Assembly: GCA_944389645.1 (NCBI GenBank)
Contig: CALXMZ010000033.1
Location: 1-50,335, forward strand
Source: an uncultured Alphaproteobacteria bacterium
GTDB lineage: Bacteria; Pseudomonadota; Alphaproteobacteria; Rs-D84
Direction: 5' to 3'
Length of the DNA stretch: 50,335 nt
Shown here: piece after piece, positions 10,149-47,238 of the stretch
Numbering within the stretch: position 1 is the stretch's first letter
How the letters are laid out: each line of letters begins with the position of its first letter
Notes under the pieces: model-generated
What the model was told of the DNA's origin: nothing
Database searches by the model: none
What the model saw: only the letters and a program-made list of their open reading frames with translations
Made by a program: the position numbers and the translations under genes

Positions 10149-11738
10149 ATGGTTAGGTATTTAGATAATAATTCCGGGTTTAAACAGTGGAACGCGAATA
10201 AGGAAGTAAACAAATCTTCAAAATCTAAGATTGGTAGTTTTTTTTGGTGGGTTCTTTTATTTTTTGCATCTTGGTGGTTAATAGGTTCATGGATGGCACC
10301 AAAAAATACAGAATACAAAGTTTCTGATGAAAAAACTGTAATAGAAGATTTATCATCAGTTCCGACCTCAGAAATTAGTTCAGAAGATATTTCTGCTGAA
10401 ATTCAGGGTTTACGTATTTCTAATATAAATTTATTAAAATTTGCTAAAAATGGTTCTGATTTTAACTCGAAAACGCACGTTTCTTTATTAAATGACGTGG
10501 GGACTTTTGCAGAAATAGGTTTTATTGCTTCTGGAACAAACGCACCTGTTGCAACAACTGTATGGAAAAAAGAAGGAGATACTTTCATTTGGCGAAACTC
10601 TAGTGGCATTGAATATCGTCGTACTATCAGCATAGATGGTTATGTGGTGACAATAGAAGATGCGATAAAAAATACGTCTGGTAAAGACGTTTCTATTGCT
10701 CCGTATGCTAAAATAGTAAGTTCGAATAATAAACCTTCGTCTGCAGGGGTTTTTACAGGTGCAATTGCTTATGTAAATTCTGATATTGAACGAGACGATT
10801 GGCATGATTTAGATAAAAAGTCTTTTGCTTATTCTACAACTACGGGTTTTATTGGTTTTGCTGATCAATATTGGGAAACCATAGTTTCTATAGATAGTCT
10901 TGATCAGACTTTACGAGTAAAAAAGCAAGATGTAAATTTATATCAATCTGATGTAGTTGCTAATCCAATTTCTATTGCGTCAGGTGAAACGAAAAATTTT
11001 ACTACGAATTTATTTGTTGGACCACGTGATCAGAAGGTTTTGGATTCTGCAAGTAAGAAAATTGCAGGTATAAATGAAACGATGGATTATGGTTGGTTTT
11101 GGTTTTTGGCAAGACCTATGTTATGGGCATTGAATGCATTAAATTCAATTGTTATGAATTATGGTATTGCAATAATTATTTTGACTATTTTATTACGTTT
11201 AGTTATATGGCCTCTTACTAGGAAATCATATACATCAATGATTGCTATGCAGAAAATGCAACCTGAAATGGAGCGTATACAAAAATTGTATGTAAATGAT
11301 AAAGCTCGTATGCAGATGGAAATGATGCGTTTATATCAAACACATAAAACATCACCGATGTCTGGGTGTTTACCGATGTTAATACAGATTCCTATTTTCT
11401 TTGCGTTATATAAAGCTTTGTTAATATCTGTTCAGATGCGTAGTGCACATTTTTTATGGATTCGTGATTTAGCTGCAATGGATCCTTATTTTATATTACC
11501 CATATTAATGGGGTTAACAATGTGGTTGCAACAGCATTTACAGACTGTATCTATGGCAAATAAAGAAACAAATAAGAATGATCCAGTTGCTCAGACGCAG
11601 AAAGCGATGAAGTGGATGCCATTAATATTTACTATTATGTTTGCGTGGATGCCTGCAGGTTTAGTTCTTTATTGGACAGTTTCAAATGTATTCGGAATCG
11701 GACAAATGTATTATATAAAAAAGTATGTAAAAAAGTAA
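10149..11738 (+). CDS. yidC: Membrane protein insertase YidC
   Basis: Periplasmic domain, DYGWFWF, GCLPMLIQIPIFFALY and PAGLVLYW. Confidence 0.95.
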   Translation: MVRYLDNNSGFKQWNANKEVNKSSKSKIGSFFWWVLLFFASWWLIGSWMAPKNTEYKVSDEKTVIEDLSSVPTSEISSEDISAEIQGLRISNINLLKFAKNGSDFNSKTHVSLLNDVGTFAEIGFIASGTNAPVATTVWKKEGDTFIWRNSSGIEYRRTISIDGYVVTIEDAIKNTSGKDVSIAPYAKIVSSNNKPSSAGVFTGAIAYVNSDIERDDWHDLDKKSFAYSTTTGFIGFADQYWETIVSIDSLDQTLRVKKQDVNLYQSDVVANPISIASGETKNFTTNLFVGPRDQKVLDSASKKIAGINETMDYGWFWFLARPMLWALNALNSIVMNYGIAIIILTILLRLVIWPLTRKSYTSMIAMQKMQPEMERIQKLYVNDKARMQMEMMRLYQTHKTSPMSGCLPMLIQIPIFFALYKALLISVQMRSAHFLWIRDLAAMDPYFILPILMGLTMWLQQHLQTVSMANKETNKNDPVAQTQKAMKWMPLIFTIMFAWMPAGLVLYWTVSNVFGIGQMYYIKKYVKK

Positions 11739-11760
11739 AAAACGCCGTTATAGGCGTTTT
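11739..11760. terminator. Bidirectional hairpin between yidC and the convergent ORF
   Basis: AAAACGCC-GTTATA-GGCGTTTT; the loop contains the stop codon of the minus-strand ORF. Confidence 0.6.
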
Positions 11761-12086
11761 AATTTTTTATATAATTTATAAGGTGTCTGAATAAATGGGG
11801 CATATAATCCGATAACCTTTTTTGTAAGATCTACGCAAGTTTTAGATTTTTTATAATTATAAGATTTTATATTATATATGTTTATAAATTCCCAACCCGC
11901 GTTACGTAATAGCTTTAAAGAATCAAGAGTTAGTATAATTTTTTTTATATGATTTTTCTTTATAAACTGAAGCATTATATATTCATTATTTTTGTTTATT
12001 AAGATAGGAGCACAATGTTTATATTTTCTGCAGAATAATTTGGGGAAAAGTTTTGATGTTTTTCTTGAAAAACCTATAATAATCAT
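11748..12086 (-). CDS. Hypothetical 112-aa basic protein, possibly a permuted papain-like (NlpC/P60-type) fold
   Basis: AAAGGA SD. Order of motifs is KHC ... TCVDL..K.IG ... QTPYKLYK. The fold call is an inference. Confidence 0.6.
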   Translation of the reverse strand: MIIIGFSRKTSKLFPKLFCRKYKHCAPILINKNNEYIMLQFIKKNHIKKIILTLDSLKLLRNAGWEFINIYNIKSYNYKKSKTCVDLTKKVIGLYAPFIQTPYKLYKKLKRL

Positions 12087-12140
12087 TTTTTATCCTTTTA
12101 AAAAGAACCCGTACCATAAAAGTACGGATCCAGATAAAAA

Positions 12141-12491
12141 TTATTCTTCAATCCAGCCGCGTTTAATTCCTGCGGTTTCAATTACATTCATTGCACGACG
12201 CCACAAGTCTGCAGAACGATTCTCTTCCCAAATATATTGATGTGGAGCCCGTCTTTTATCACCAAATTTTTTCATTACATTAAGTTGTTCTCGGCTTAAT
12301 TGACCAGATAAATATAATTTTGTTATAAGAGTTTCTACATCTAATAATTCGCATGGGCGTTTTGTGTAAGAATTATGTTTTTTTATGAAACCATTTTGGA
12401 TAGATTTCGAATATAAGAACCAAAACCATAGTTGCTCTGCGTTCTGAAATTTTTCTGTGAAACAATTTAATTGAATATTCTGAGATATCAT
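12141..12491 (-). CDS. Conserved-looking hypothetical protein (116 aa)
   Basis: Strong AGGAGGAG SD; motifs FQNAEQLWFWF, RPCE and LWRRAM..IE...KRGW. Confidence 0.75.
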   Translation of the reverse strand: MISQNIQLNCFTEKFQNAEQLWFWFLYSKSIQNGFIKKHNSYTKRPCELLDVETLITKLYLSGQLSREQLNVMKKFGDKRRAPHQYIWEENRSADLWRRAMNVIETAGIKRGWIEE

Positions 12492-12578
12492 TTTATTCTC
12501 CTCCTTTTTTAATTGCCCGACACGATATATAAAACATCAATGGAAAACTGTAAAACGTTACAACCAAAGGTTGAAATT

Positions 12579-12630
12579 CGAATCAGTTTTCTGATTCGTT
12601 AATAAGTTTTGTTTTCGTATATTCGAATCG
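12579..12630. promoter_or_regulatory. Cluster of three GANTC sites in YGAKTCG context, including a palindrome
   Basis: CGAATCAG-TTTT-CTGATTCG at 12579-12598 and CGAATCG at 12624-12630, upstream of the 116-aa gene. Confidence 0.5.
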
Positions 12631-12652
12631 TGTTTTTTGTGTTTTTTATATA

Positions 12653-12681
12653 AAAAACGCGCTAAGGTTTAGCGCGTTTTT
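12653..12681. terminator. Hairpin downstream of virB10 (second terminator)
   Basis: AAAAACGCGCTAA-GGT-TTAGCGCGTTTTT. Confidence 0.6.
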
Positions 12682-12748
12682 AAAAGCTTTTATATTATCA
12701 TTTTATATTATATCATAAACTCCTATTTTTTTCAATTATTGAATAAAG

Positions 12749-12768
12749 AACCGCCATAAATGGCGGTT
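12749..12768 (-). terminator. Terminator immediately after virB10
   Basis: AACCGCCAT-AA-ATGGCGGTT, 3 nt past the stop codon. Confidence 0.65.
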
Positions 12769-12771
12769 TAG

Positions 12772-15270
12772 TTATAAGATTGGAGGAAAACAGTCCCCCC
12801 CCGTTTCAGGACAACAATTAAAACCTTGTTCGCCCATATCTGTGTATATTTCACCAGGGCAGCAGCCGTATTCGTCAGGTAAAGTACCGTTTTCGTCACA
12901 AGTAATAACATTAACAACCGTTTCTTGTGTTTCTGTTTCTGTTGTCTGGAACGGATTTTGGATAGATCCGTCGTCGTTATAAGTTAACCCAAGTATTTCT
13001 TTATTATAAGTTTCACTACCAGAAATACCTGTTATTGTATTACTATTTGACCATGTGTCATAACTATTAATAGATTGGCCCGGAGAATAATTCGTTTTAA
13101 ATTGATCTTGCTGGTTTTGATACAAGACATCTTGTTTTACGTTATTTATTGCTTGATAATTCAGAGACTGACAATAAGCTAAAATTGTTCTATATTCATA
13201 ACCAGAATTATAAATTTGTTCTAGCATACCTTTATTAATATCCCAAATACCGCTAGAATCTGTCGTGCAATATTGCCCAAGATCAAATGAACGGACTTGA
13301 CCTACCCAAGATGGGTCATTATAGTTTATTGTTACACCTGGGTTAGATCTCCAACTATCATTACGAAAATTTCTTTCATCTTCCATTTTTGTAGCCTTTC
13401 GTACGTTTTCTACAGAGCATTCTTTATTATTATCTGTTCCGCAAGTTATAACTAAGTCATTAGGTGAAAAAATTGTAATGCGAGTCCCAGCAGCAATTGA
13501 GAAAGGTGGTATAGTATTGTCCATTGCATCAACTAGTAGTTTTTGTGCAACTTGGTTCCATGCGGTGATAATTTCGTTTTTTGCTAATTCTGATGATCGA
13601 ACAGTTCCAGATTGCACAACCGTATTATTATCTAGATCAATTTGATTAACAAATGTATCAGCAATAGGAGCAATCATATTAACTGCGGCTGGAACGATTG
13701 CTGTTAGCATTGGCATGACGATTTGTTCTACATAGTCTGTACTACCATGTCCTGGAACACCTGCTCGTCCTTGAGAATCTCCAGAAAATGGTTGACTCTC
13801 AGCATTGTGAAAATTAAACTCCACCCCATTGGGCAAAATAAATTGATACCATTTTATCTGCATGCGACCAATAGATTTGTAAGGACCTGGTAATTCGCCT
13901 GTGACATATCCCAGAATCAAAGTTCCTGTTGGTATTATTACCGTGCGTCCATCGTCAGAATATACGTTTCTATCAACTGTTGCACGTACAGGTAAATTTT
14001 GCCCAGAACATTGACTTCCAATACAATTATATAAAGAAGGATCTGCGCGAACTTCAGAAACAATTGTTGCGGGTATTGGTTTATATTGACGTAATACGAA
14101 CTTTCTATCAAATGGATCAGAAGAAAAAATAGCATTTTTACTACTTGATCCGATAATAGTAGGGTTTTTATTAGATTCTAACTTAATACGAGTTATCTGT
14201 TCTATAGGTTGCATATTTGCACTTTGAGCTAATAATTCTTCTGTCGTTAATTGTCTAGCTTTATTAACTGTTTTCTTTGACACTGGGTTTGATAGCTGTG
14301 GAATTGCCCCATTCGTTATAGATGTGTAACCTATATGTTCTGCATCTGTACCAATTTTTTTCCCATTATCATTTATATCTATTATTATACCGGTATCAGG
14401 GTTATATACTCCTGTTGGAGTATCGCAATTTTTATCTGAAAATGGGTGAAAGTAATAAGCTCCTGCTTCTGGGCGGATCCAACCGCTTTGAATACCAGAT
14501 AAATTGTAACCAGGAAAAGCAAAATCAGAACACTTTTCTGCAGGTGTTTCTTCAGTTAAATTTTCTTTAACCGGTTGAACGTCGATTGATTCCGCAACTT
14601 TTTCTTCTACTGGTTTCATAGTTTTTTCTTCAAAAAAATTATTTGATGAAGCAATTGCATTTATTTCTTTTTCTATTTCTTTTTTAGGTTCTTCTTTTTC
14701 TTCTTTGTCTAAGTTTTCCTGTTGTTGATTATCTATTGAAAATTGTGGGAGAGGCGTTTCTACTATTGGTTCTTTAGCTCCTAATATAAACATAATTTTT
14801 TCACTATCCGTCATTATATTTGACTCATCTACACCATGCCAATCAACGAATAATTCAACCGTTTCTGTTTTCATTTGTTCTGTTGGTCGATACTCTACAG
14901 TAATTGAGCAAGGATTATTTGTATCTATCTGAGCCATAGCAGTACAATTTTCCTGTGGTTTTGTAGATAAACCATTTACTTCCTTACCCCAATTTATTTT
15001 TAAGATTTTTGCAGGTGCGTTAGAAGAAATTTTTATCGTTTCTTTCTTTGTTTCACCGACAACTACATCTGCCCAATTTATAGTATCAGGGTTAATTTTT
15101 AGATTTATCGCAACAGCATCAACGTTTTTAATTTCTTCTTTATCTTTATTCGTTAATAATAAAGTTAACAAAATTAAAACCACAACAAAAGCAGCGATAA
15201 GCAACAGCCATTGAATATGTTTAGGCGTGCTTTTACGTAGTTCTGAAAATTGTTTTTTTATATTATTCAT
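12772..15270 (-). CDS. virB10: VirB10/TrbI family T4SS core protein with extra domains (832 aa)
   Basis: N-terminal TM anchor. TrbI motifs PIPATIVSEVRAD, VRATVDRNVYSDDGRTVIIPTGTLILG, RMQIKW...LPNG, DSQGRAGVPG and IPPFSIAAGTRITIFSPNDL. Confidence 0.85.
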   Translation of the reverse strand: MNNIKKQFSELRKSTPKHIQWLLLIAAFVVVLILLTLLLTNKDKEEIKNVDAVAINLKINPDTINWADVVVGETKKETIKISSNAPAKILKINWGKEVNGLSTKPQENCTAMAQIDTNNPCSITVEYRPTEQMKTETVELFVDWHGVDESNIMTDSEKIMFILGAKEPIVETPLPQFSIDNQQQENLDKEEKEEPKKEIEKEINAIASSNNFFEEKTMKPVEEKVAESIDVQPVKENLTEETPAEKCSDFAFPGYNLSGIQSGWIRPEAGAYYFHPFSDKNCDTPTGVYNPDTGIIIDINDNGKKIGTDAEHIGYTSITNGAIPQLSNPVSKKTVNKARQLTTEELLAQSANMQPIEQITRIKLESNKNPTIIGSSSKNAIFSSDPFDRKFVLRQYKPIPATIVSEVRADPSLYNCIGSQCSGQNLPVRATVDRNVYSDDGRTVIIPTGTLILGYVTGELPGPYKSIGRMQIKWYQFILPNGVEFNFHNAESQPFSGDSQGRAGVPGHGSTDYVEQIVMPMLTAIVPAAVNMIAPIADTFVNQIDLDNNTVVQSGTVRSSELAKNEIITAWNQVAQKLLVDAMDNTIPPFSIAAGTRITIFSPNDLVITCGTDNNKECSVENVRKATKMEDERNFRNDSWRSNPGVTINYNDPSWVGQVRSFDLGQYCTTDSSGIWDINKGMLEQIYNSGYEYRTILAYCQSLNYQAINNVKQDVLYQNQQDQFKTNYSPGQSINSYDTWSNSNTITGISGSETYNKEILGLTYNDDGSIQNPFQTTETETQETVVNVITCDENGTLPDEYGCCPGEIYTDMGEQGFNCCPETGGDCFPPIL

Positions 15271-15293
15271 AATTTAATCCGCATTCATACAAG

Positions 15294-16829
15294 TTACTGA
15301 ATTCTTACGACGCTGCAACTTACTCCCTGAGATTTGGTCAATTGATCGCATAGCTTTTGCGCTGTATCTATATCCGATAGCGGACCTATACGAAGGCGAT
15401 ATAAACGAGCTGCAGAAGATTCTGCACCTAACTCACCGACACCTTGTTCATCAACAGCAAAGAATACCATATTTTCATATGGGCTTAAAATACCCGTACC
15501 CTCATCCCCACTAAATTTTGATAATAAATTAGCCCAATAATCATTAAGAGCCTTCACAGAAGTGTCAGATTTTAATTCAACTGCAACGCCCGTCTGATTC
15601 GAGGTTATTAATGGTATGTTAGATTGCGGTAAGAAAGAACCTGCAGTTAATCGTTCTGTCGGTATCATTGAAACGCCACTAGCTGTTGAAGAACCATAAG
15701 TTTGTACAGGTAAACCATAACCAGCAGGCATATAATAACCCGTTGTTGATGCCCCCATTGTATTACCAACAAACATAGGTGTTGAAGTATAGTTACCAAC
15801 AGAAGAATTTATTGCCGATAAATCCGCATTATAAGCGATATTATTTAACGATTGCCCAGATAACATACTCTGAGCAACATTTGCTTCAGCTAAAGCCATA
15901 ACAGATGCTGTGTCAGCAATTAAGAAAGGTTTTTCACGTTTTTTTATACATACAATACGTTGACCGCTACGAAGAACCATATCACCAACCGCTTCAACTA
16001 TAAGCAATCTTCCGTCTTCACCGTCTGTTCTGAAGCTAACAGGTGATTCACCACCTTCTACTAACAGGGATACTACTGGACGTTGCGTCATTGAAATTAC
16101 TTTATCTCCGAAATCAATATACGTAAAGATTTGATCGCGCCAAACTCTTTCTGGTGCAATGACATAATCATCTGGATTAGGAACGAATATATCCATATCA
16201 AATCTAAATTCTGACGGATCTATTTTCATTGATTTTATCCAACCATAATCTTCACCATCTACGCCGACTGTATTACTAGTAGAAGATACTTTTTTGAAAA
16301 TGGAGGAAGCCCCACCACCAGAGTTTGCAGAATTAGAAGATGCACTTGGTAAAGTTGCATTACCATCAAGAACGACATCTACTTGGGAATACGTTATTTC
16401 ACTTGAGTTAGATGGTTCACAACGAAGATAAAATATATATTGATTTCCGGATTTACCGGTTACGATAAAATTCGTATCAGAACCTTGATTACTTGGTTGC
16501 GGATTTATTAGAATTTTATTTCCGCCTTGTGCAGCTTCAAATGCGAATAAACCGTCAGAGCCCACGACGGCATCTTCGATCTGTTCACCATTTGGTAAGG
16601 TTATCATAGTTACCATACCGTTACGAAGTTTTATAGGTAACACGCTACCTTTTGACCAGCTTAGTTGAGCATATCCTGGTTTCGTGCTACCAGATGCCAT
16701 ATTTGCATTTGGATTATCCCATGCTTCCTGAATGCCGGCCGCCATAGATGCTTTTGTATCACATAAAGCGCATAACATAGTCAGACATAATATTGATATA
16801 TTTAACTTTATCATTTTTGCGAACGTCAT
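15294..16829 (-). CDS. virB9: VirB9/TrbG family T4SS core protein fused to a C-terminal SPOR-like domain
   Basis: Signal peptide; IKLRNGMVTMITLPNGEQI..VVGS, TNFIVTG...YIFYL and PERVWRDQIFTYIDFG...LRSGQRIVCI. ATG 16829 has an AAGGAA SD; the track start is 16844. Confidence 0.85.
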   Translation of the reverse strand: MTFAKMIKLNISILCLTMLCALCDTKASMAAGIQEAWDNPNANMASGSTKPGYAQLSWSKGSVLPIKLRNGMVTMITLPNGEQIEDAVVGSDGLFAFEAAQGGNKILINPQPSNQGSDTNFIVTGKSGNQYIFYLRCEPSNSSEITYSQVDVVLDGNATLPSASSNSANSGGGASSIFKKVSSTSNTVGVDGEDYGWIKSMKIDPSEFRFDMDIFVPNPDDYVIAPERVWRDQIFTYIDFGDKVISMTQRPVVSLLVEGGESPVSFRTDGEDGRLLIVEAVGDMVLRSGQRIVCIKKREKPFLIADTASVMALAEANVAQSMLSGQSLNNIAYNADLSAINSSVGNYTSTPMFVGNTMGASTTGYYMPAGYGLPVQTYGSSTASGVSMIPTERLTAGSFLPQSNIPLITSNQTGVAVELKSDTSVKALNDYWANLLSKFSGDEGTGILSPYENMVFFAVDEQGVGELGAESSAARLYRLRIGPLSDIDTAQKLCDQLTKSQGVSCSVVRIQ

Positions 16830-16846
16830 ACTTATTCCTTCCATTT

Positions 16847-17521
16847 TTAAATATTTGTATCTTCTAAGAACCCTGTATCTAGTGGATCACCATTTCCAGA
16901 TAATATTTCATATTCTGAAACCCTAATACCCAGCGGGTTATTTATTCTGTCTACCCACTTAAGATTTTTTTCATTTTCTAATTTTATTTTTATTTTATAC
17001 TCTTTTTTATCTGACTGTCCATTAATATCTGAACAGAAATAACGAAACGTTATAGCATAAGTGTCATTTGTCCGTGGTTCAATCGCATTATTATCAAATT
17101 CAACAGAACATGAAAACTCAAAATCAGGAATACTAGACATTAACGCGTTCCACATACTTGTTTTTGTGAATTCGTTGTAAACGTTTTGATTTGACCATGT
17201 ATAAACGATACCGTTTAAGTCGTTATTCCATTTGGTCCGCATTACGTTTATATTAGGTATAATTTCGTTTCTTGCTTTTACGTATTCTTGAATAAATGCA
17301 CGTTTATAAGGTTCAATATTTTCATCAGACGGTTGCATTTCCGTTAATACAATCTGTAAGTTATTTTTTGGTACACTCATCAAGAAGAAGATTTGTGGTC
17401 TATTGGTGGGGAACATGTTGTACAAGGTAATGATCATAGTAATAACCACGACAATCATCGTTGCGAAAATGAACGTCATTAACCGTGATAATAAAATTGG
17501 TGGTTCGACGCGGTCTTGCAA
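16847..17521 (-). CDS. virB8: VirB8/TrbF family T4SS protein
   Basis: Single N-terminal TM, FIQEYVKARNE and C-terminal RINNPLGIRVSEY (NPLG motif). TTG start with GGAGAGG SD. Confidence 0.85.
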   Translation of the reverse strand: MQDRVEPPILLSRLMTFIFATMIVVVITMIITLYNMFPTNRPQIFFLMSVPKNNLQIVLTEMQPSDENIEPYKRAFIQEYVKARNEIIPNINVMRTKWNNDLNGIVYTWSNQNVYNEFTKTSMWNALMSSIPDFEFSCSVEFDNNAIEPRTNDTYAITFRYFCSDINGQSDKKEYKIKIKLENEKNLKWVDRINNPLGIRVSEYEILSGNGDPLDTGFLEDTNI

Positions 17522-17547
17522 GTGTTCCTCTCCTTATATTTAAAAAG

Positions 17548-17577
17548 ATTGTAGACAAAAAAGCAAGGGGTGTGCAA
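17548..17577 (-). promoter_or_regulatory. Sigma70-like promoter for the virB8-10 operon
   Basis: TTGCAC-N18-TACAAT on the minus strand. Confidence 0.5.
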
Positions 17578-17633
17578 GTAAAAAAGTACTATATAAACGC
17601 ATTTTCGTTAAAAAAATCGGTTTAATTTTTTTC

Positions 17634-17662
17634 TTGCTTGTTTTCGTTTAAAAAATTATAAT
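17634..17662 (+). promoter_or_regulatory. Sigma70-like promoter for tRNA-Trp-secE-nusG
   Basis: TTGCTT-N17-TATAAT. Confidence 0.6.
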
Positions 17663-17753
17663 ATTTCCGCTTGATTTTTTATGCAGGTGTGCTATCGTGA
17701 GCCAGACTATTAAGGTTCGCGGTAAATAAAGACAGGGTAAATGTTAACGTAAA

Positions 17754-17827
17754 AGGGGCATAGTTCAACGGTAGAATATCGGTCTCCAAAACCGCGGATG
17801 AGGGTTCGATTCCTTCTGCCCCTGCCA
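17754..17827 (+). tRNA. trpT: tRNA-Trp (CCA)
   Basis: Cloverleaf with AGGGGCA/TGCCCCT acceptor, anticodon CCA at 17786-17788, TTCGATT T-loop and encoded CCA. It sits in the usual position before secE. Confidence 0.97.
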
Positions 17828-17870
17828 AGGATTTAAATCCGTTTAGTAGTCAGATACATAGGCAAAATTT

Positions 17871-18050
17871 ATGAAAAAAATACTAGAATACATCAAGTCT
17901 GTTCGGGGAGAATGGTTTAAAATTGTATGGCCATCACGTGATAGCGTTATTCGTGCGACGATAATGATTTTGGTGTTTTCTGGTTTGGCAGCGCTGTTCT
18001 TTTTTGTTATTGACAGCGTTTTAAATACGATTGTGGGTTGGATTTTCTAA
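17871..18050 (+). CDS. secE: Preprotein translocase subunit SecE (59 aa)
   Basis: Read manually: MKKILEYIKSVRGEWFKIVWPSRDSVIRATIMILVFSGLAALFFFVIDSVLNTIVGWIF, with the E..K..WP motif plus a TM. Confidence 0.93.
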   Translation: MKKILEYIKSVRGEWFKIVWPSRDSVIRATIMILVFSGLAALFFFVIDSVLNTIVGWIF

Positions 18051-18068
18051 CGGGCAAAGGAAGTGCGT

Positions 18069-18602
18069 ATGGAAGATAAAATGCAATGGTTTGTTGTGAA
18101 TGTTCATACTGGTTGCGAGGATAAGGTTGCAAGGGGGCTACGTGAACAGATAGACAAACGTCGTTTAAATGCTTATTTTGGGGAAATTTTGGTACCGACG
18201 CGTGAAATTACCGAAATTAAAGCTGGTAAACGTGTAAAATCAGAAAAGAAATTTTTCCCGGGTTACATAGTTGTTCAAATGGTAATGAATAACGAAACTT
18301 TTTCGTTAGTAAAATTGATGCCACAGGTTGTGATGTTTCTTGGTGCTAAAAACAAACCTATTGCGGTCAGTGAAGAAGAGGCGCGTCGTTTGTTAAAGCA
18401 GGTAGAAGAAGGTTCTGTTGTTACGGAAGATATTGAATATGAAGTCGGACAAGAAGTTCATGTAATAGATGGTCCCTTTGCTGGATTTAATGGGGTTGTA
18501 TCAGAAGTGGATAATTTGAAACAGAAAATGACTGTTATTATTTTAGTATTCGGTCGTGAAACTAGTGTAGAGTTAGACTTTGCGCAAGTTGAAAGAGTTT
18601 AA
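18069..18602 (+). CDS. nusG: Transcription termination/antitermination factor NusG
   Basis: WFVV..HTGCE, FFPGYI and KOW motif VIDGPFAGFNG...FGRET. Confidence 0.97.
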   Translation: MEDKMQWFVVNVHTGCEDKVARGLREQIDKRRLNAYFGEILVPTREITEIKAGKRVKSEKKFFPGYIVVQMVMNNETFSLVKLMPQVVMFLGAKNKPIAVSEEEARRLLKQVEEGSVVTEDIEYEVGQEVHVIDGPFAGFNGVVSEVDNLKQKMTVIILVFGRETSVELDFAQVERV

Positions 18603-31295: not shown

Positions 31296-34025
31296 ATGGA
31301 GAGAAAAATGTTTTTAATAAAAAAAATTCCTTTTTGCATGATTGCTTTTTACGGTATTACCGCATATGGGGTAGATGTCGGGGATTTTAGTTCTTTTTAT
31401 AACGCTTACAAAACGAATACTGCGCAAAATGATATAACGATAACGGCAGATTTAACGGCAAATCGCTTAGTTGGTGTAGCAGGAAGCGTGATTACAAATA
31501 TTGATGGTGGTGGGTATAATTTTATAGGAGATAATTACAATGGTTTTACTGTTTCAAGTGATAGCAGTATTTCTTTCACAAATGTCGGGAATTTTAATGT
31601 TTCTGGGCAAAGTGCAACAATAGAGAATTCCGTTAACGGTTTTTATCAATCTGGGCAAGGGGCAGTATTTTCAAATACAGGGGGTAATTTAAATATAGAA
31701 AATTCTGCATTTAATAATAATTCTTCACGGTATGGTGGCAGTGTAGTTTATCAAACCAATAGCGGTAATTTAAGTATATTAAATAGCGTTTTTCAAAATA
31801 ATAGTGTAACGCGTAGCAATGGCGGCGTAATTTATAATCAGTATAGAACAACTGCAAATATAGCAGGTAGTTATTTTCAAGAGAATTCTGCTAGTAATTA
31901 TGGTGGTGTAGTATTTAATGATGGTGAAATAACGGTTTCGGATAGTGTTTTTAGTTCTAATACAGCGACAAGTGGGGCGGCTATATATAATTCAAATACA
32001 GTCACAATGAATAACGTTGATTTTATAGGTAATATAGGTACAGAAAGTGTAGGAGCTGTTTATACTACAGGTATGATGGATATAACAAATAGTACATTTG
32101 GAAATAATAAAGGTGAAACAGGGGGGGCAATAGGTGTTTACGGAATTATAGGAGATGGCTTATATACTGTCGTAAAAAATTCTACATTTACTGGTAATAG
32201 TGCGATGTATGGTGGTGCGCTTTATAACTGGGATGATACATACATAATAGATAGTAGTTTTGTGAATAATACGGCAACGGATGGAGGTGGTGCGATTTTT
32301 AATATAAATGCATTGTTTTTAATAGCGCAGAATTCGGATATAGAATTTACAGGTAATACTTCTTCTGGTGAATCTAATGCGATATATACTTCAGAAACGT
32401 TAGGGCTAAATGCAGCAACTGATTATCAAATAGTTTTCAACGATAAGATAACGGGTTCAGGTTCCATAGTAATAAATAATCCGTATACGTTGGAAGAAAG
32501 TGTTATGCCAACGGGTGGAACAGTATTGCTTAATGAAGATATGAGTGGTTTTAGCGGTGATGTAACAATAGCATCAGGAACAGTTCTGGTTAGTGATAGC
32601 GGTAAATTTTTTAGTGCAAAGGATTTGCAGGTAACGGGTGGGGTTTTAGATTTAGGAACTACGAATACCATAATAAATACTGCAACATTTGAGTCTGGAA
32701 GTACATTAAAATTAAACATACAAAATGCAGATACGTATGGATATTTAACGGCAGATACATTTACAATATCTGAAGGCGCATTGTTAAGCGCTGTTTTAGG
32801 GCCAGATGCAATGCAGGGAAGAGAAAGTTTGCAGGTGCAATTGTTGCGTAGTTCTACGGATATAACAGATAATTTTCTACCTGACATAGATAATAATATT
32901 TATGCTTTCGTAAAATTAGGTAATGGTTGGTATGAAGTGATGCAAGAAAACACGTTTTTAGAGATTATAAAAAATTCTGGTGGTTCACAGAATAATGAAA
33001 ATACTGCTATAGGTTGGCAGAATGCCTCAATAGGTGAGGGTATTATTGCAGACGAAGTTTATGAAAGGTTAGATTATTTACTTCAAGTAGATGCTGGGGG
33101 ATATATAAAAGCTTTAACAGCTCTTGCGCCATCAACCGCTCCTTTAATGGAAATACTAGGTAATTTACATACAGAAAGATATGAGAAATTATTATCTTTT
33201 GACTCTAATAATCGTGAAGAATTTTACATAAGTAATGGTAAGTTTTGGATGGCAGGTTTAGGTGGGGGCAGTAGATTAAAAGAAGATAAATTTTATGCAG
33301 ATTTTGATATTTATGGTTATGGTATAGGTATCGGTGCAGAATATTATAAAAAAAACTTAACTTTAGGTATCGCTTATAATTATCAATACGATAGATTGAA
33401 GAGTTGGGCCAGAGTACTACACGCCCCCACACATGGTATAGGTGGATATGCAAAATATAATTATGGGAATTTTATTTGGAATAATGCATTAAGTTTTTTT
33501 TATAGTAACATAAGTGAAACAAAAAATGTAGCAGGTATTCAACTATTTGATGATTTTGGGCTTTATACCAATTCTATTTGGTCAGATATAGGTTATAGTT
33601 TATCTTTTAATGAATTAAAAATAACTCCTTTTGTAGGTACAAAATATACTTTTTTACATAGAAATAAATCTATTGATAGTGCTGGGCAAGAAATTTCTTC
33701 TGCTAATTTAGATTTTTTAAGTACGTATACAAAATTTATTACAGAATATAAATTTATTTATAATGAATCTTTTAGTTTTTTACCTAGTTTAGAATTAGGT
33801 ATTTCATATGATTGGCTTGCAGATATAGATAATGTAAACGTTGTCATAAGTGATACAGAATATTATATATCAGCAGAACGTTTAGCAAGCTGGCAAGGTT
33901 TAGTCGGATTAAAATTTAAATTTAATTTTGGCGTTTTATACAATTTAGAAGTAGGAGCTGATTTTACGTTTCGCGATGGGTATAATAATTATACCGGTAT
34001 GATAAAAGGAAGTATGAGATTTTAA
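31296..34025 (+). CDS. Autotransporter with Pmp-like (FxxN / GGA[I/L/V]) beta-helix passenger
   Basis: Signal peptide, repeated FxxN...GG(A/V)(I/L/V)(Y/F), and a C-terminal ~270-aa aromatic beta-barrel ending in F. Confidence 0.85.
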   Translation: MERKMFLIKKIPFCMIAFYGITAYGVDVGDFSSFYNAYKTNTAQNDITITADLTANRLVGVAGSVITNIDGGGYNFIGDNYNGFTVSSDSSISFTNVGNFNVSGQSATIENSVNGFYQSGQGAVFSNTGGNLNIENSAFNNNSSRYGGSVVYQTNSGNLSILNSVFQNNSVTRSNGGVIYNQYRTTANIAGSYFQENSASNYGGVVFNDGEITVSDSVFSSNTATSGAAIYNSNTVTMNNVDFIGNIGTESVGAVYTTGMMDITNSTFGNNKGETGGAIGVYGIIGDGLYTVVKNSTFTGNSAMYGGALYNWDDTYIIDSSFVNNTATDGGGAIFNINALFLIAQNSDIEFTGNTSSGESNAIYTSETLGLNAATDYQIVFNDKITGSGSIVINNPYTLEESVMPTGGTVLLNEDMSGFSGDVTIASGTVLVSDSGKFFSAKDLQVTGGVLDLGTTNTIINTATFESGSTLKLNIQNADTYGYLTADTFTISEGALLSAVLGPDAMQGRESLQVQLLRSSTDITDNFLPDIDNNIYAFVKLGNGWYEVMQENTFLEIIKNSGGSQNNENTAIGWQNASIGEGIIADEVYERLDYLLQVDAGGYIKALTALAPSTAPLMEILGNLHTERYEKLLSFDSNNREEFYISNGKFWMAGLGGGSRLKEDKFYADFDIYGYGIGIGAEYYKKNLTLGIAYNYQYDRLKSWARVLHAPTHGIGGYAKYNYGNFIWNNALSFFYSNISETKNVAGIQLFDDFGLYTNSIWSDIGYSLSFNELKITPFVGTKYTFLHRNKSIDSAGQEISSANLDFLSTYTKFITEYKFIYNESFSFLPSLELGISYDWLADIDNVNVVISDTEYYISAERLASWQGLVGLKFKFNFGVLYNLEVGADFTFRDGYNNYTGMIKGSMRF

Positions 34026-35302: not shown

Positions 35303-37543
35303 TTAATCTTTAACGCAAGTATTCGTTTTAGAGCTATATGTATAACCTGTTTCGCAAGAGCATAATGGGTATTTACCTTGTGTGCTTGCACCATGTTCGG
35401 CGGAAGTAGGGCAAGACATACATTTGTTCATACTTGATATATATGAAGCTGTATTTTCTGTACAAACACAATCTGGATATGTACCCGTTGTATTTGATGG
35501 GCATTCTGGATTGGATAATACTTTATTTACCCATTCGTTAGCGCTTGCCTCTTGGGCGTCTGTAACAGACATACAAGTTGTTATGACAGATTTACATGCA
35601 TTTATTGCTATGTTTGTACTTGTCGGATTTGATGCATTATAATTGTTCTGTGATAAGCATGAAGATACATCTGTAATACAATCTTCTGCATAATCAGACA
35701 AAATTTCGTCTTGCATAGACTTTATTTGTATTAAAGTACGACTTAAAAATTCTTTAATTACATCATTGTCTGGTTTATATTTTAAATTCTGACCTGAGCC
35801 GCTATAAGTTATATCTTGGCATTTGTTTAATACAGACATGCACATACCGTAATTTTTACCATCTGAATCATCATGATAACCGATTTTATTCTGTAAAAAT
35901 TCGGACATATTCGTTGTACTAGGTTTTGAAGGTAAAGAAGATTTTACTGTTGAGCTTATATAATCACTGAGCGTGCCATTAGTCCATGCGTTAGAGTTTG
36001 TATCGTAATTCCACGTCTCATAGATAACAGCATTTTCATCATTTGGTGCACCTGGTGCGCTTCCAACGACTATGTCTCCATTAACAATATATTTTCCACT
36101 TGGGTCTAAACAGTTTTCGTAATCGCTACCACAGACAAAATCATCTTGCATACAAGAATCTAATGCATTTACGCAACCACGTAAATCATATGAGTTTTTC
36201 TGCTGAGCAACCAAAAGACGGGCTTTTTGTAAAACGCTTTTAGCGTTTCTGACTGTTGCTGCCATTTGGTCGTTAGATTCTGTTAATGTTCGTTCGTATA
36301 TTATGCATTGTTTGTCTATTTCTAAGTCATAAGAGTTAGTTATAACTGAAATATCCACACCTTGTGCTTGGCAGCTATTTAAGACCGATGCTTTACAGCG
36401 TGCAGCAGCTGTTTTGTAAAGCTGTTCACCACGTTGGTTACTGATAGAAGATGTATCAGTAGTTGTACCAAGTAAATTGCTTAAATTAAAACCAGTACTA
36501 TCTATTGTAAAATCTAATAATCCAGATAAATCTAAGCTTAATCCTGTTGTAGAACTTGTTGATTTACCAGATTCTACATCTATGATCATTTTTTTAATTT
36601 TATCTAAATCATTTTTTAATTGAGTATTATCGGTTGTTGTTTGCATCTCTAATTCGGCTTCTGTTTGTGTAAACAACGTTTCTACTTCATCTGCTGTTAA
36701 TCCGATATATTGAATTTTTTGTGCAACGTCTTGTAATTCTTCTGTTGCTTTTTTTAACGCTTCTTCTGTTTCCGAATAATTTTTCAGATTTGCACTACAA
36801 CTACAACGTCCCTGGTTGTCATCTAATACATTACAGAAATTATCCATGCAAGACGTATATTGAGCTTTGCAAAAATCTGTAATTTGAGCTAGTTCATCCA
36901 TTGTTATACTTGATGATACAGAAGTATCACTTGTTGAAACGCTTGTTGTTGATGTGCCTGTCCTGACCGTTGGTACGCGAGCACTTACGGATGATGTATT
37001 TACTCCTACTCTACTAGTTATATATAACGGTTGGTTAACTGTATCCGTTTGAACAATGGAGGAGCGCGCTGTGGTTGCGTTGTTCGTTTGAGTATTACGT
37101 GCAGTTACGCCCGGAGTTTTTGTTGTTGTCGTCGTCGTCCGTGCGGTAGTCGTTGGACGTCTATTCGTTGTAGTCGTTGTGGTTGTAGTCGGAACGGTTC
37201 TTGTCGCTGTTGTCGTTGCTGCTCTACTAGTTACCGAACGAGATATGTTTGCGTTTGTATTGCGATTTGATGTATTACGACTCGTCGTAGAAGATGATGC
37301 GACTGCTCTGGACGTTGCTGCTCTACCGCTTGTATTCCTTGGGCTAACTGTGCTTGGAGTTACAGGGTTTACGACTGTTTTCTGTTGTTCTTTTTCTTCT
37401 GTTTTATCAGAAGAATCTTTCGGCGTAGTGTCGGAATATTCTTCGTTATATTCCATTACATCTTCATAATAATATGCCGGAACAACCTCTGCAAAAGCTG
37501 GTAAAACAAGCAAACTACTAAGTACAGCAATAAAACGTTTCAT
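35303..37543 (-). CDS. Secreted protein with a Thr/Ser/Arg-rich low-complexity region and Cys-rich domains (746 aa), function unknown
   Basis: Signal peptide (…LPAFA|E), poly-Thr tracts, CxxxYxxCMDxFC, a coiled-coil stretch and EGF-like C-terminal Cys repeats. Confidence 0.8.
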   Translation of the reverse strand: MKRFIAVLSSLLVLPAFAEVVPAYYYEDVMEYNEEYSDTTPKDSSDKTEEKEQQKTVVNPVTPSTVSPRNTSGRAATSRAVASSSTTSRNTSNRNTNANISRSVTSRAATTTATRTVPTTTTTTTTNRRPTTTARTTTTTTKTPGVTARNTQTNNATTARSSIVQTDTVNQPLYITSRVGVNTSSVSARVPTVRTGTSTTSVSTSDTSVSSSITMDELAQITDFCKAQYTSCMDNFCNVLDDNQGRCSCSANLKNYSETEEALKKATEELQDVAQKIQYIGLTADEVETLFTQTEAELEMQTTTDNTQLKNDLDKIKKMIIDVESGKSTSSTTGLSLDLSGLLDFTIDSTGFNLSNLLGTTTDTSSISNQRGEQLYKTAAARCKASVLNSCQAQGVDISVITNSYDLEIDKQCIIYERTLTESNDQMAATVRNAKSVLQKARLLVAQQKNSYDLRGCVNALDSCMQDDFVCGSDYENCLDPSGKYIVNGDIVVGSAPGAPNDENAVIYETWNYDTNSNAWTNGTLSDYISSTVKSSLPSKPSTTNMSEFLQNKIGYHDDSDGKNYGMCMSVLNKCQDITYSGSGQNLKYKPDNDVIKEFLSRTLIQIKSMQDEILSDYAEDCITDVSSCLSQNNYNASNPTSTNIAINACKSVITTCMSVTDAQEASANEWVNKVLSNPECPSNTTGTYPDCVCTENTASYISSMNKCMSCPTSAEHGASTQGKYPLCSCETGYTYSSKTNTCVKD

Positions 37544-45756: not shown

Positions 45757-47238
45757 ATGAGAGCAGGGTTATTTTCTTTTTTAAGTATATTAACAGTTTC
45801 ATTTGGAGGTTATGCTTCAAGTGAAGGTGTACCGTCTTACTATCAGAATGATACAAATAGTACATCAGCAAGTTCTTCTTATGGTCAATATCAACAACAA
45901 GGTTATACTAAGTATGTAGGCCAAACCGGTGAAAAACAGATAGTTAATAGTCGATCTTACTCGTATCAAGTACCGCGTCAGACTTTGCCGACCATGAATG
46001 GTACGATGACCACGAATGGTATAGCAATGCCAGTTTCAGAAGAACCTGCAACTACCATTTATGCAAAATATGCTAGGCGTTTTGCAGATTTTCAATTTGA
46101 AACTGGGGTAAATTCCATTCTTGAATGGGATGATATGGTGTTCAATGAGATTGGTGTTGGTTTGCAACATAATTTCAATATAAGAAATTTTGATATGTTT
46201 GCGTATGGTGAATATAGTATGGGTTTCATGTCACATGGTGGGTTATCAATGGATTATGATTTAAAACCATATGATGAATCTAAACCAGATTACGGTATAT
46301 TTACTGTTTCTATTGGCGATCAGACTGGTAAGACAAATCATTTTAAGTTAGGTATAGGTGCTCATCATATATGGGATATAGGTGGGTGGAAATTATCGCC
46401 ATCGTTTGGTTACGAAATTTTCAATCATAATTTAGAAATGTCGGATCACTTATATCCCAACCCAGGAATATTCTTACCATTGATGACAAACAAGGGTGAT
46501 TATGTTTATGGTGATGTAAACGGTAATTATTATTCTTTACCGATTAATGCGGAAGCGCCTGAAGATTGGTATCAGGTATGTATGTCACCTGAAGATATAA
46601 AATTAGTGCAGGCTCCTGCGGGTGGTGCATTAGTTGATTTAGGAACAACGCTTGTAACTGGTGATTATGATCCAGCAATGGGTTATATTCCTTGGGGGGT
46701 TGATTCTAATGAGTGTGTAATTATCGGTGGTGATGGCCCTGTATTGGTTGAAGGTACAACGCACATTTATAATACTACGTGGAGTGGTTTTTATATAGGT
46801 TTAGAAGTAGAAAAACAGATGACGTTGAAAGATAATTTACGTTTTTATGTTCAGTTTGGGTTACCAAAATATTCATCTGAAGGTACGTGGCCAAATAGAA
46901 CTGATTGGCAGCAAAACCCTAGTTTTATAGATGAGGGTAGCAATGACGCATATTCTTATTCTGCAGAAATGGAATATAATTATAAGATATCAGATCGTAT
47001 GCAACTGGCCATAAAAGTAGATACAGATTATTTCTACGTTGGTAAAATAGGTGGTGAATTGTATCTTGCAGAATATACAAGTTACGTTTTAGATGAAAAT
47101 GGTATGTATATTTTGGACGATAATGGGTTGCCGATTTTAGAAACGGTGCCTGCAAGTACGCAGTACATCAGTAATCAATTAAATTATGCTACGTGGCAAT
47201 CGTTTGGGTTGCATATAGGCGTTAAATACGCATTTTAA
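45757..47238 (+). CDS. Outer-membrane beta-barrel protein, omptin-like
   Basis: Signal peptide, SILEWDD, SMDYD, amphipathic strands and C-terminal GLHIGVKYAF. Confidence 0.6.
   Translation: MRAGLFSFLSILTVSFGGYASSEGVPSYYQNDTNSTSASSSYGQYQQQGYTKYVGQTGEKQIVNSRSYSYQVPRQTLPTMNGTMTTNGIAMPVSEEPATTIYAKYARRFADFQFETGVNSILEWDDMVFNEIGVGLQHNFNIRNFDMFAYGEYSMGFMSHGGLSMDYDLKPYDESKPDYGIFTVSIGDQTGKTNHFKLGIGAHHIWDIGGWKLSPSFGYEIFNHNLEMSDHLYPNPGIFLPLMTNKGDYVYGDVNGNYYSLPINAEAPEDWYQVCMSPEDIKLVQAPAGGALVDLGTTLVTGDYDPAMGYIPWGVDSNECVIIGGDGPVLVEGTTHIYNTTWSGFYIGLEVEKQMTLKDNLRFYVQFGLPKYSSEGTWPNRTDWQQNPSFIDEGSNDAYSYSAEMEYNYKISDRMQLAIKVDTDYFYVGKIGGELYLAEYTSYVLDENGMYILDDNGLPILETVPASTQYISNQLNYATWQSFGLHIGVKYAF

Follow-up and report, generated by a model that had tools for sequence, protein, structure and literature searches.

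The rvh system of the Rickettsiales is described by Gillespie et al. (2009; PMC2653234) as a chromosomal, vertically inherited P-type type IV secretion system (T4SS) in a reduced alphaproteobacterial genome, and it has been proposed to deliver substrates to another cell. Its genes lie in separate islets among housekeeping genes and comprise a tandem array of five virB6 genes as well as duplicated virB4, virB8 and virB9, while no VirB5 was detected, VirD4 occurs without a conserved relaxase and the core proteins show some affinity to ComB. The archetypal P-type systems, namely VirB/VirD4 of Agrobacterium tumefaciens, Trw of R388 and Tra of pKM101, are encoded in one operon and possess a relaxase or T-DNA-type substrate machinery. 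Two further chromosomal systems are ComB of Helicobacter pylori, which is split and T4SS-derived, and the X-T4SS of Xanthomonas citri, a VirB/VirD4 system that is used on neighbouring cells and not for DNA transfer. Here, a virB8-virB9-virB10 operon is compared with these systems. It is located on a contig of 50,335 bp (C33, analyzed over its entire length and called the window in the following) from the assembly of an uncultured alphaproteobacterium, which comprises 768 kb in 46 contigs with about 35% G + C and an estimated completeness of 79%. The operon probably encodes the envelope-spanning core of a complete, dispersed and vertically inherited P-type T4SS of Candidatus Enterousia and its order, whose likeliest task is the delivery of substrates to a partner cell.

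The closest named relatives of the source organism are Candidatus Enterousia, gut Alphaproteobacteria with tiny genomes, and near-identical DNA is present in sequencing runs of chicken-gut and other gut metagenomes from several studies. An initial assignment to the Chlamydiae, prompted by Chlam_PMP and Pom matches of window proteins, was discarded, since the nearest genomes bear the names Candidatus Enterousia or Alphaproteobacteria. Enterousia is assigned to the uncultured order Rs-D84 (PMC12306168); this paper reports reduced genomes without tricarboxylic acid cycle, respiration or standard uptake transporters for the whole order and does not contain the words 'secretion' and 'T4SS'. The uncultured gut bacteria of Enterousia and Rs-D84 are widespread, their genomes are smaller than 1 Mb and their lifestyle is undescribed, and no published T4SS of this group was found in the literature. 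A search for the ATP/ADP translocase family PF03219 gave no match and is uninformative, as its control search matched nowhere either. For the comparison, a sample of 41 genomes was used, consisting of the source genome, 24 genomes of the same genus and 16 genomes from five other families of the order. Substitution rates and the comparisons within Enterousia are based on the best 80 of 311 VirB9-confirmed loci, which were obtained by scanning species-representative genomes with the VirB9 alignment. In these best 80 loci VirB9 is 71-85% identical to the query, and they originate from gut metagenome-assembled genomes (MAGs) titled 'Candidatus Enterousia ...', 'uncultured Alphaproteobacteria bacterium' or similar.

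The operon consists of three open reading frames (ORFs), which abut on the minus strand:

16847-17521, minus strand: virB8, 224 aa, TTG start codon, PF04335
15294-16844, minus strand: virB9 with a C-terminal SPOR domain, 516 aa, PF03524 and PF05036
12772-15270, minus strand: virB10, enlarged, 832 aa, PF03743

All three Pfam scores exceed the curated gathering cut-offs, by which the three packed T4SS core genes reported in the first-pass annotation of this DNA were confirmed. The same annotation had noted that the window holds no further T4SS, relaxase or integrase genes, and none of these families was detected among the 31 window ORFs scanned. It had also described the operon as stand-alone. 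This had to be revised, because virB3-virB4, virD4 and a VirB6-like gene array are present elsewhere in the same genome, and a VirB11-like gene occurs in its relatives.

The vir loci outside the window are situated on separate contigs among housekeeping genes. On contig C39, a virB3-like ORF of 98 aa with a weak match (E 7.8e-4) is followed by virB4, next to a SufBD gene. This VirB4 matches PF03135 with an E-value of 4.3e-14 and exceeds 605 aa, its ORF being cut by the contig end; full-length VirB4 proteins of 805-829 aa were found in five of five near-complete relatives, with one match per genome. A solitary virD4 gene on contig C23, located between an RNA methyltransferase gene and fabZ/lpxD, codes for a protein of 739 aa that matches PF02534 (E 2.9e-48) as well as TraG-D_C and TrwB_AAD_bind. 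VirD4 was detected in all 41 genomes.

Five adjacent genes for polytopic proteins of 396-478 aa with seven to nine hydrophobic segments each are found on contig C29 (6210-12775). Three of the encoded proteins, B6b, B6c and B6e, are clearly related to each other and to an array of five tandem genes in genome G040 from another family of the order (C1:148840-158545, locus L024 3840-13545; 826, 517, 664, 706 and 552 aa). The G040 array represents a larger version of the array on C29, and one of its members scores above the TrbL/VirB6 cut-off and one just below it. B6b itself remains below the cut-off for TrbL (E 1.5e-3) and is 23% identical to a gene product of the G040 array (E 2.7e-23 in a small database), and a VirB6b orthologue was found in 40 of the 41 genomes. 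A jackhmmer search with B6b over the ORFs of the source genome recovered B6b alone.

On contig C18, a VirB2-like candidate of 121 aa was identified that has two hydrophobic helices in addition to a signal peptide and is 58% identical to an ORF of genome G002 that weakly matches TrbC/VirB2. The TrbC family (PF04956) itself exceeds the cut-off in six of the 41 genomes and reaches E <= 0.01 in 15, with no match in the source genome. Directly upstream of the candidate lies an ORF for a Cys-rich, lipoprotein-like protein (153 aa as called) with a lipobox-like signal, and the pair (C18:25258-26188, locus L038 5259-6189) is kept in G002. The lipoprotein-like ORF is a possible candidate for a VirB7-type partner.

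A second ATPase of the T2SSE family was detected in 36 of the 41 genomes, where its ORF measures about 292-391 aa, and was not found in G000, G018, G032, G036 and G037. Its copy in the same-genus genome G003 has TIGR02788 VirB11 as best full-length match (E 6.8e-43, 146.9 bits against a cut-off of 250), and the VirB11 identity given by TIGR02788 is taken from this one copy. In one family of the order (f3), the gene for the VirB11-like ATPase adjoins virB10 on the opposite strand. Contig C19 of the source genome ends one gene before the syntenic virB11 position, so that an assembly gap is the likely cause of the missing gene. The sole strong T2SSE-family ATPase of the source genome is a PilB-like protein of 545 aa in a pilus cluster. 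This type IV pilus cluster (C38:3494-8152, locus L009) lies between gyrB and lpxC and codes for PilB-like, PilC/T2SSF and PAP_PilO-like proteins; its PilB-like ATPase is kept in nearly all relatives, and the cluster could serve attachment or ComEC-linked DNA uptake. VirB4 (in the full-length copy of G003) and VirD4 of the source genome have both Walker motifs, A and B, in intact form, and the Walker A motif is intact in VirB11 of G003.

VirB9 and VirB10 are each present in 40 of the 41 genomes, and the sole genome without both is 72% complete. One match to CagX was found in 39 of the 40 genomes with VirB9, while the two matches in G022 are the halves of one gene that is split between contigs. 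In G003 the genes from dacC to rpoB follow each other in the same order, whereas in G040 and G028, which belong to other families, the virB8-virB9-virB10 triplet is kept and the flanks differ. The vir loci of G003 are distributed over five sites on two contigs, with virB4 at 22 kb and VirB6b at 124 kb on the first and virB11 at 176 kb, virB8-10 at 278 kb and virD4 at 393 kb on the second. The G + C content of the operon (0.33-0.37) equals that of the genome. The median ratios of non-synonymous to synonymous substitution rates (dN/dS, NG86 method) in the 80 Enterousia loci are 0.27 for virB8, 0.10 for virB9 and 0.18 for virB10, calculated from pairs with a dS of 0.05-1.5 (626 of 3160, 405 of 3160 and 110 of 2926 pairs, respectively); they are approximate, since the median dS of about 1.35 is close to saturation. 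As conditions that would speak for a mobile element or a relic, the first-pass annotation had named a patchy distribution with closest matches on plasmids or integrative and conjugative elements, or a missing VirB4-type ATPase together with relaxed selection. The distribution is not patchy, the closest matches are not on plasmids, VirB4 is present and selection is not relaxed.

VirB9 (PF03524 CagX/VirB9, E 1.2e-21) is composed of a signal peptide, an N-terminal domain (residues 55-160, approximately), a C-terminal O-layer domain (approximately 195-305), a variable low-complexity linker and a terminal domain:

15297-15632, minus strand: SPOR-like tail of VirB9, residues 405-516, a terminal domain of about 100 residues

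The alignment of VirB9 (A1) contains 18 sequences and the AlphaFold2 (AF2) model reaches a mean predicted local distance difference test score (pLDDT) of 53. In a Foldseek search with this model, VirB9 of Xanthomonas (6gyb_B) was the best match (E 2.7e-10), and a PDB sequence search gave no match for VirB9. The N-terminal domain was modelled confidently and superposes on the N-terminal domain of TrwF of R388 (7o3t_B) with a template modelling (TM) score of 0.78 and a root-mean-square deviation of 1.8. The C-terminal O-layer domain is near-invariant throughout the order, yet it was poorly modelled. Across the families of the order, the full-length identity of VirB9 amounts to 41-44%.

The SPOR family (PF05036) matches VirB9 residues 476-514 with E 9e-7 and 29.6 bits against a cut-off of 21, the alignment being confined to the second half of the Pfam model (positions 38-76 of 76), and 11 of 12 order-wide VirB9 tails match SPOR with a best E-value of 4.2e-9. 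In the model, the tail shows the order beta-alpha-beta-beta-alpha-beta expected of SPOR at a pLDDT of about 75-80, which likens it to the SPOR proteins FtsN, DamX, DedD and RlpA. Y482, R483, L484, R485, P488, C499 and C510 are invariant in alignment A1. A near-invariant Glu (E423) is located in the first strand, whereas Gln is the residue usually given for this position of canonical SPOR domains. A search of the PDB with a profile of the tail gave chance-level matches only and no SPOR chain. VirB9 had already been named 'TrbG/VirB9 family P-type conjugative transfer protein' by the automatic NCBI pipeline, and the combination of CagX and SPOR is present in large metagenomic clusters; a published description of a SPOR-VirB9 fusion was not found in the literature. 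The SPOR tail probably ties the VirB9 ring to the peptidoglycan. Beneath the O-layer domain and at the end of a long, flexible linker, it would be well positioned to reach the peptidoglycan and may fix or position the outer-membrane ring. A peptidoglycan-binding subunit of another T4SS core is the OmpA-like DotK of Legionella.

VirB10 (PF03743 TrbI, E 7.4e-16, residues 397-606) starts with an N-terminal tail and a membrane helix (residues 17-40), followed by extra periplasmic domains, the barrel with antenna helices and a genus-specific C-terminal extension. Three regions can be delimited on the DNA:

14770-15117, minus strand: PapD/ASH-like beta-sandwich of VirB10, residues 52-167, predicted to be periplasmic, just after the membrane helix
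13441-14133, minus strand: C-terminal barrel of VirB10, residues 380-610
12775-12930, minus strand: Cys-rich module at the C-terminus of VirB10, residues 781-832, about 40-50 residues with six conserved cysteines

The alignment of VirB10 (A2) contains 24 sequences, and the AF2 model has a mean pLDDT of 64. The PapD/ASH-like domain reaches a pLDDT of about 88 and has Foldseek matches including the ASH/PapD-like structure 6fvi (E 1.5e-5), in addition to a weak match of the NCBIfam choice-of-anchor D model at residues 55-131; its cysteines C109 and C121 are invariant throughout the order. A small conserved beta domain follows at residues 245-315. In the predicted barrel, two long helices (512-533 and 559-586) occupy the place where solved VirB10 structures have the outer-membrane antenna, and a hydrophobic segment begins at residue 516. 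The Foldseek matches of VirB10 are CagY 6x6k (E 1.1e-11), TrwE 7o3j_A, Xanthomonas VirB10 6gyb_C and TraF 3jqo.

The part of VirB10 beyond residue 620, which contains a helical segment (662-727) and ends in the Cys-rich module, is restricted to the genus, while other families have acidic, aromatic-rich tails. The Cys-rich module has no Pfam family match and is not found in VirB10 of nine genomes from other families that were compared. Copies of it stand at the ends of ORFs in each of the same-genus genomes searched, and a jackhmmer search revealed that it also terminates three other ORFs of the source genome:

C6:1488-1766 and C6:1730-1996, both minus strand: tandem small secreted or anchored proteins of 92 and 88 aa
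C9:7915-10134, plus strand: bitopic protein of 739 aa with a long cytoplasmic coiled-coil part

VirB8 matches PF04335 with E 2.6e-12 and 47.5 bits against a cut-off of 23.2 and contains a single N-terminal hydrophobic segment starting at residue 7, which would fit a bitopic inner-membrane assembly factor. Its orthologues in the 80 Enterousia loci are 42-75% identical, and a PDB sequence search gave no match.

The system is organised like rvh. It shares with rvh (PMC2653234) the chromosomal location and vertical inheritance in a reduced alphaproteobacterial genome, the distribution over islets among housekeeping genes, with the operon, virB3-virB4, virD4 and the VirB6-like array on four different contigs, the tandem array of five VirB6 or VirB6-like genes, the lack of a detected VirB5, a VirD4 without conserved relaxase and core proteins with a certain affinity to ComB. 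In contrast to rvh, virB4 (five of five genomes) and virB9 occur in single copy, virB11 and virD4 are unlinked to virB8-10 in the genus, VirB9 carries the SPOR tail, VirB10 has extra domains and the VirB6-like proteins are smaller. As virB4 and virB9 are not duplicated and the VirB4 tree described below contains no named Rickettsiales sequences, the system is classified as rvh-like in its layout and not as a member of rvh. The split rvh layout, put forward earlier as a precedent, describes the locus better than a stand-alone operon.

With the archetypal P-type systems, the families VirB4, VirB8, VirB9, VirB10 and VirD4 are shared, together with VirB3-like and VirB6-like proteins and, in relatives, a VirB11-like ATPase, and the predicted N-terminal domain of VirB9 and the predicted barrel of VirB10 superpose on chains of the solved R388 and pKM101 core complexes. 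Differences are the dispersed genes, the absence of a relaxase or T-DNA-type substrate machinery, an identity of the VirB10 core of at most 31%, the SPOR domain of VirB9, the PapD-like domain and C-terminal extension of VirB10, and the lack of identified VirB1, VirB5 and VirB7.

The set of genes points to a working trans-envelope channel, as do the antenna helices, which are retained, and the ATPase motifs, which are intact. In the proposed mechanism, VirB8 would nucleate the assembly in the inner membrane, while VirB9 would build the periplasmic and outer-membrane rings, anchored to the peptidoglycan by SPOR on its flexible tail. VirB10 is predicted to reach from the inner membrane across the periplasm, to form a pore in the outer membrane with its antenna helices and to carry the extra periplasmic modules. 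VirB4, VirD4, VirB3, the polytopic array, the VirB2-like candidate and, in relatives, VirB11 would be supplied from the separate housekeeping loci, and the machine would deliver protein substrates into a partner cell or act on it otherwise. Since every genome of the sample has a coupling protein and neither of the relaxase families searched is conserved, proteins or other non-conjugative substrates are the likely cargo. Their delivery to another cell would agree with what has been proposed for rvh (PMC2653234) and with the function of VirB/VirD4 systems that translocate effectors or kill bacteria. An action on a partner cell also fits a metabolism too reduced for independent life.

A weak hint of transcription is given by small metatranscriptome contigs from two libraries of different studies, which map inside virB10 and virB9 with at most two mismatches, one of them crossing the virB9/virB8 junction; parts of the window that are not covered by these contigs carry no information on a lack of transcription. 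Several observations weigh against the proposed reading, and one of them is that the RNA-library contigs may stem from contaminating DNA. The NCBIfam equivalog models for VirB9, VirB10 and ComB10 match the operon proteins only far below their cut-offs, from which it follows that these proteins are divergent, and VirB4 remains with 381 bits below the 643-bit cut-off of TIGR00929. Two of the five members of the C29 array, B6a and B6d, show a weak resemblance to VirB6, the VirB2-like candidate is without a family match of its own, and VirB11 was not found in the incomplete source assembly. VirB1 and VirB7 were not identified, and VirB5 (PF07996) exceeded the cut-off in none of the 41 genomes, where the control also matched in no genome and the sensitivity of the search is thus unproven. 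No effector or target was identified. A search for ankyrin repeats, which would hint at a eukaryotic target, gave one weak match for the genus, in a conserved protein of about 1230 aa (C21:15886-16053 in the source genome). The data show which genes are present, how far they are conserved, the selection on them, their predicted folds and their dispersal, whereas the assembly into one machine, the SPOR anchoring, the nature of the substrates and the identity of the target are inferred. Two clear ankyrin-repeat ORFs were observed in G040 (C1:282235-282504 and C1:389-634).

A special case of substrate delivery would be contact-dependent killing of bacteria as by X-T4SS, with toxins injected into gut neighbours. 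The X. citri core provides the best structural match of VirB9 and is among the top matches of VirB10, and like X-T4SS, the system is chromosomal; moreover, the gut is densely populated, and VirD4 is present without a conserved relaxase. However, the R388 and Cag structures match equally well, the genes are dispersed, and with about 0.9 Mb the genome has limited space for arsenals of toxins. A VirB7 N0 domain, XVIPCD-type effectors and immunity genes did not turn up, and no search for them was made. Killing of neighbours is regarded as an unlikely specialisation.

The first-pass annotation had offered DNA uptake as an option, in which the VirB8-10 channel would lead across the outer membrane and ComEC across the inner membrane, as in ComB. 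In favour of it, comEC lies 11 kb away in the window, H. pylori ComB10 (2bhv) is the best PDB sequence match of VirB10 (E 3.2e-5), and the ComB10 model NF038092 scores with 53.6 bits nearly as high as the VirB10 model with 58.9 bits. The former value is far below the ComB10 cut-off of 300 bits. ComB systems are not known to contain VirD4 or VirB11, and since both VirD4, as the coupling protein, and a VirB11-like ATPase are kept in this group, ComB-like uptake is disfavoured. Furthermore, the separate PilB/PilC/PilO cluster could serve ComEC. The flanks of the operon differ in G040 and G028, and the regions of about 19 kb compared around their operons yielded no comEC homologue. DNA uptake is accordingly rated as improbable.

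Still less probable is that the operon is a remnant or a working part of a conjugative element or integrative and conjugative element, serving DNA transfer or release. The protein families are those of conjugation, and the automatic NCBI name points in the same direction. A tblastn search with the VirB10 barrel against plasmids gave 552 records, of which 378 are conjugative; all of them are below 60% identity, and the best reaches 31%. Only two relaxase families were searched, of which PF03432 exceeded the cut-off in one of the 41 genomes (G030) and TrwC (PF08751) in none. The relaxase of G030 (C21:2260-2640, PF03432 E 1.6e-37) probably belongs to a separate mobile element or a mis-binned contig. 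Neither an integrase nor an att repeat was found in the window ORFs scanned, and the genes stand singly among housekeeping genes with conserved synteny and the composition of the genome. The earlier view of vertical inheritance outside a conjugative element is thus borne out by the distribution in 40 of 41 genomes, the identical flanks in G003, the rare relaxase and the distant plasmid matches, and a chromosomal, vertically inherited operon under purifying selection that is not part of a conjugative element is supported.

A similarly slight chance is given to a VirB8-9-10 scaffold that stands alone, works without VirB4 and VirD4 and has been recruited for something other than secretion, such as tethering the envelope or partnering a type IVb pilus. 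The operon is indeed located apart from the other vir genes, its proteins carry SPOR, PapD-like and Cys-rich additions, and the PilB-type cluster is conserved. On the other hand, VirB3/VirB4, the VirB6-like proteins, VirB11 and VirD4 co-occur in essentially all of the same genomes, and this co-occurrence would be hard to explain with an independent core; the modelled antenna helices also point to a secretion pore. A decaying relic without function would agree with the scores below the equivalog cut-offs and the lack of VirB5, VirB1 and VirB7, and can practically be dismissed in view of ORFs intact in 40 of 41 genomes, the low dN/dS, the near-invariant C-terminal domain of VirB9 and the intact ATPase motifs.

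The distribution of the proposed secretion system beyond the order was analyzed with the full-length VirB4 of G003, for which a phmmer search against 1.84 billion representatives gave 2832 matches. In a FastTree phylogeny of 124 full-length matches and two locus sequences, Rs-D84 forms one clade (support 100), which is sister to 25 sequences (support 98). Of the 20 nearest representatives looked up, four bear a name; two of these names give an organism, namely 'Alphaproteobacteria bacterium' and a 'Sphingorhabdus sp.' MAG, and neither is a Rickettsiales name. Among 300 further genomes sampled evenly from the class, 23 genomes outside the order, most of them 1.1-2.5 Mb in size, contain a VirB4 at 37-42% identity, including one partial match at 53%, and all remaining matches in this sample are at most 34% identical. 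Five class-level relatives from the top of this VirB4 list all carry a VirB9 that is 40-48% identical and has a SPOR-like tail in the same ORF. Their contexts show virB3-virB4 pairs. Four of these relatives have virB4 and virB9 on separate contigs or at a distance of 140 kb, while in G097 the two genes are located in one cluster. Since the VirB9-SPOR protein occurs in these five relatives, the core is not specific to Rs-D84; it marks a broader alphaproteobacterial T4SS lineage that includes other small genomes. In one class-level relative, G058, a single contig (C19:22026-32254) bears a further, more distant VirB9 (33% identical, ORF of 292 aa) and also a further VirB4 (25% identical), which indicates a second T4SS beside the VirB9-SPOR system.

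New in this analysis are the genome-wide inventory of the dispersed system, the order-wide counts and the occurrence of VirB9-SPOR beyond the order. A complete T4SS under purifying selection in a tiny genome is a strong candidate for the means by which these cells depend on a partner, and the system would extend the dispersed, VirB6-expanded layout beyond the Rickettsiales and points to a T4SS core with its own cell-wall anchor. It is tentatively suggested, as a possible though rather doubtful extension, that the peptidoglycan-anchored dispersed T4SS is the core organelle for partner interaction of a small-genome alphaproteobacterial clade comprising Rs-D84 and further families, and thus a sister phenomenon to rvh outside the Rickettsiales. 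If this were true, gut Enterousia would be obligate cell-associated symbionts or parasites of protists, of the host epithelium or of other bacteria; the machine would inject effectors or extract resources, and the Cys-rich tail of VirB10 together with the proteins sharing its module would form an exposed recognition layer. Experimental handles are VirD4 as effector bait, the localisation of VirB9-SPOR and the surface modules of VirB10.

The surroundings of the operon in the window correspond to the earlier description, with the tRNA-Trp/secE/rpoBC cluster back-to-back to it and comEC at the distance given above. The following features were assigned:

17754-17827, plus strand: tRNA-Trp, upstream of the operon on the other strand
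17871-18050, opposite strand to the operon: secE, followed by nusG, rplKAJL and rpoBC
17548-17576, minus strand: weak candidate promoter upstream of virB8
12749-12768, minus strand: terminator-like hairpin directly 3' of the virB10 stop codon
2-1753: comEC, partial, 11 kb from the operon

Downstream of the operon follow two small ORFs, yidC, lspA, a Na+/H+ exchanger gene, ksgA, recR, a D-Ala-D-Ala carboxypeptidase gene, pyk, pyrG and the partial comEC. Of two terminators predicted in the first-pass annotation, the one at 12749 was recovered as the listed hairpin, which has a stem of 8 bp with five GC pairs and a T-rich tail, and none was reported near 12653 in the scan of the region 11500-18200; in total, 11 terminator-like sites were found in this region against 3.6 expected by chance. 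The promoter-like element suggested earlier at 17548-17577 was found again as a site matching nine of 12 consensus positions, yet it is plausible by its position alone, as such sites occur in the same region at chance rate (30 found, 29.5 expected).

The two small ORFs just past the virB10 terminator (11748-12086 and 12141-12491, both minus strand; 112 and 116 aa) are without family match and are kept in G003 with 42% and 63% identity. Farther away in the window, an ORF for 746 aa (35303-37543, minus strand) has no Pfam match at E <= 1e-5. Two genes on the plus strand code for a protein of 909 aa with repeats of the Chlamydia PMP type (31296-34025) and for a protein of 493 aa with a weak match to a Protochlamydia outer-membrane protein family (45757-47238; E 2.3e-8), and both are probably surface proteins.

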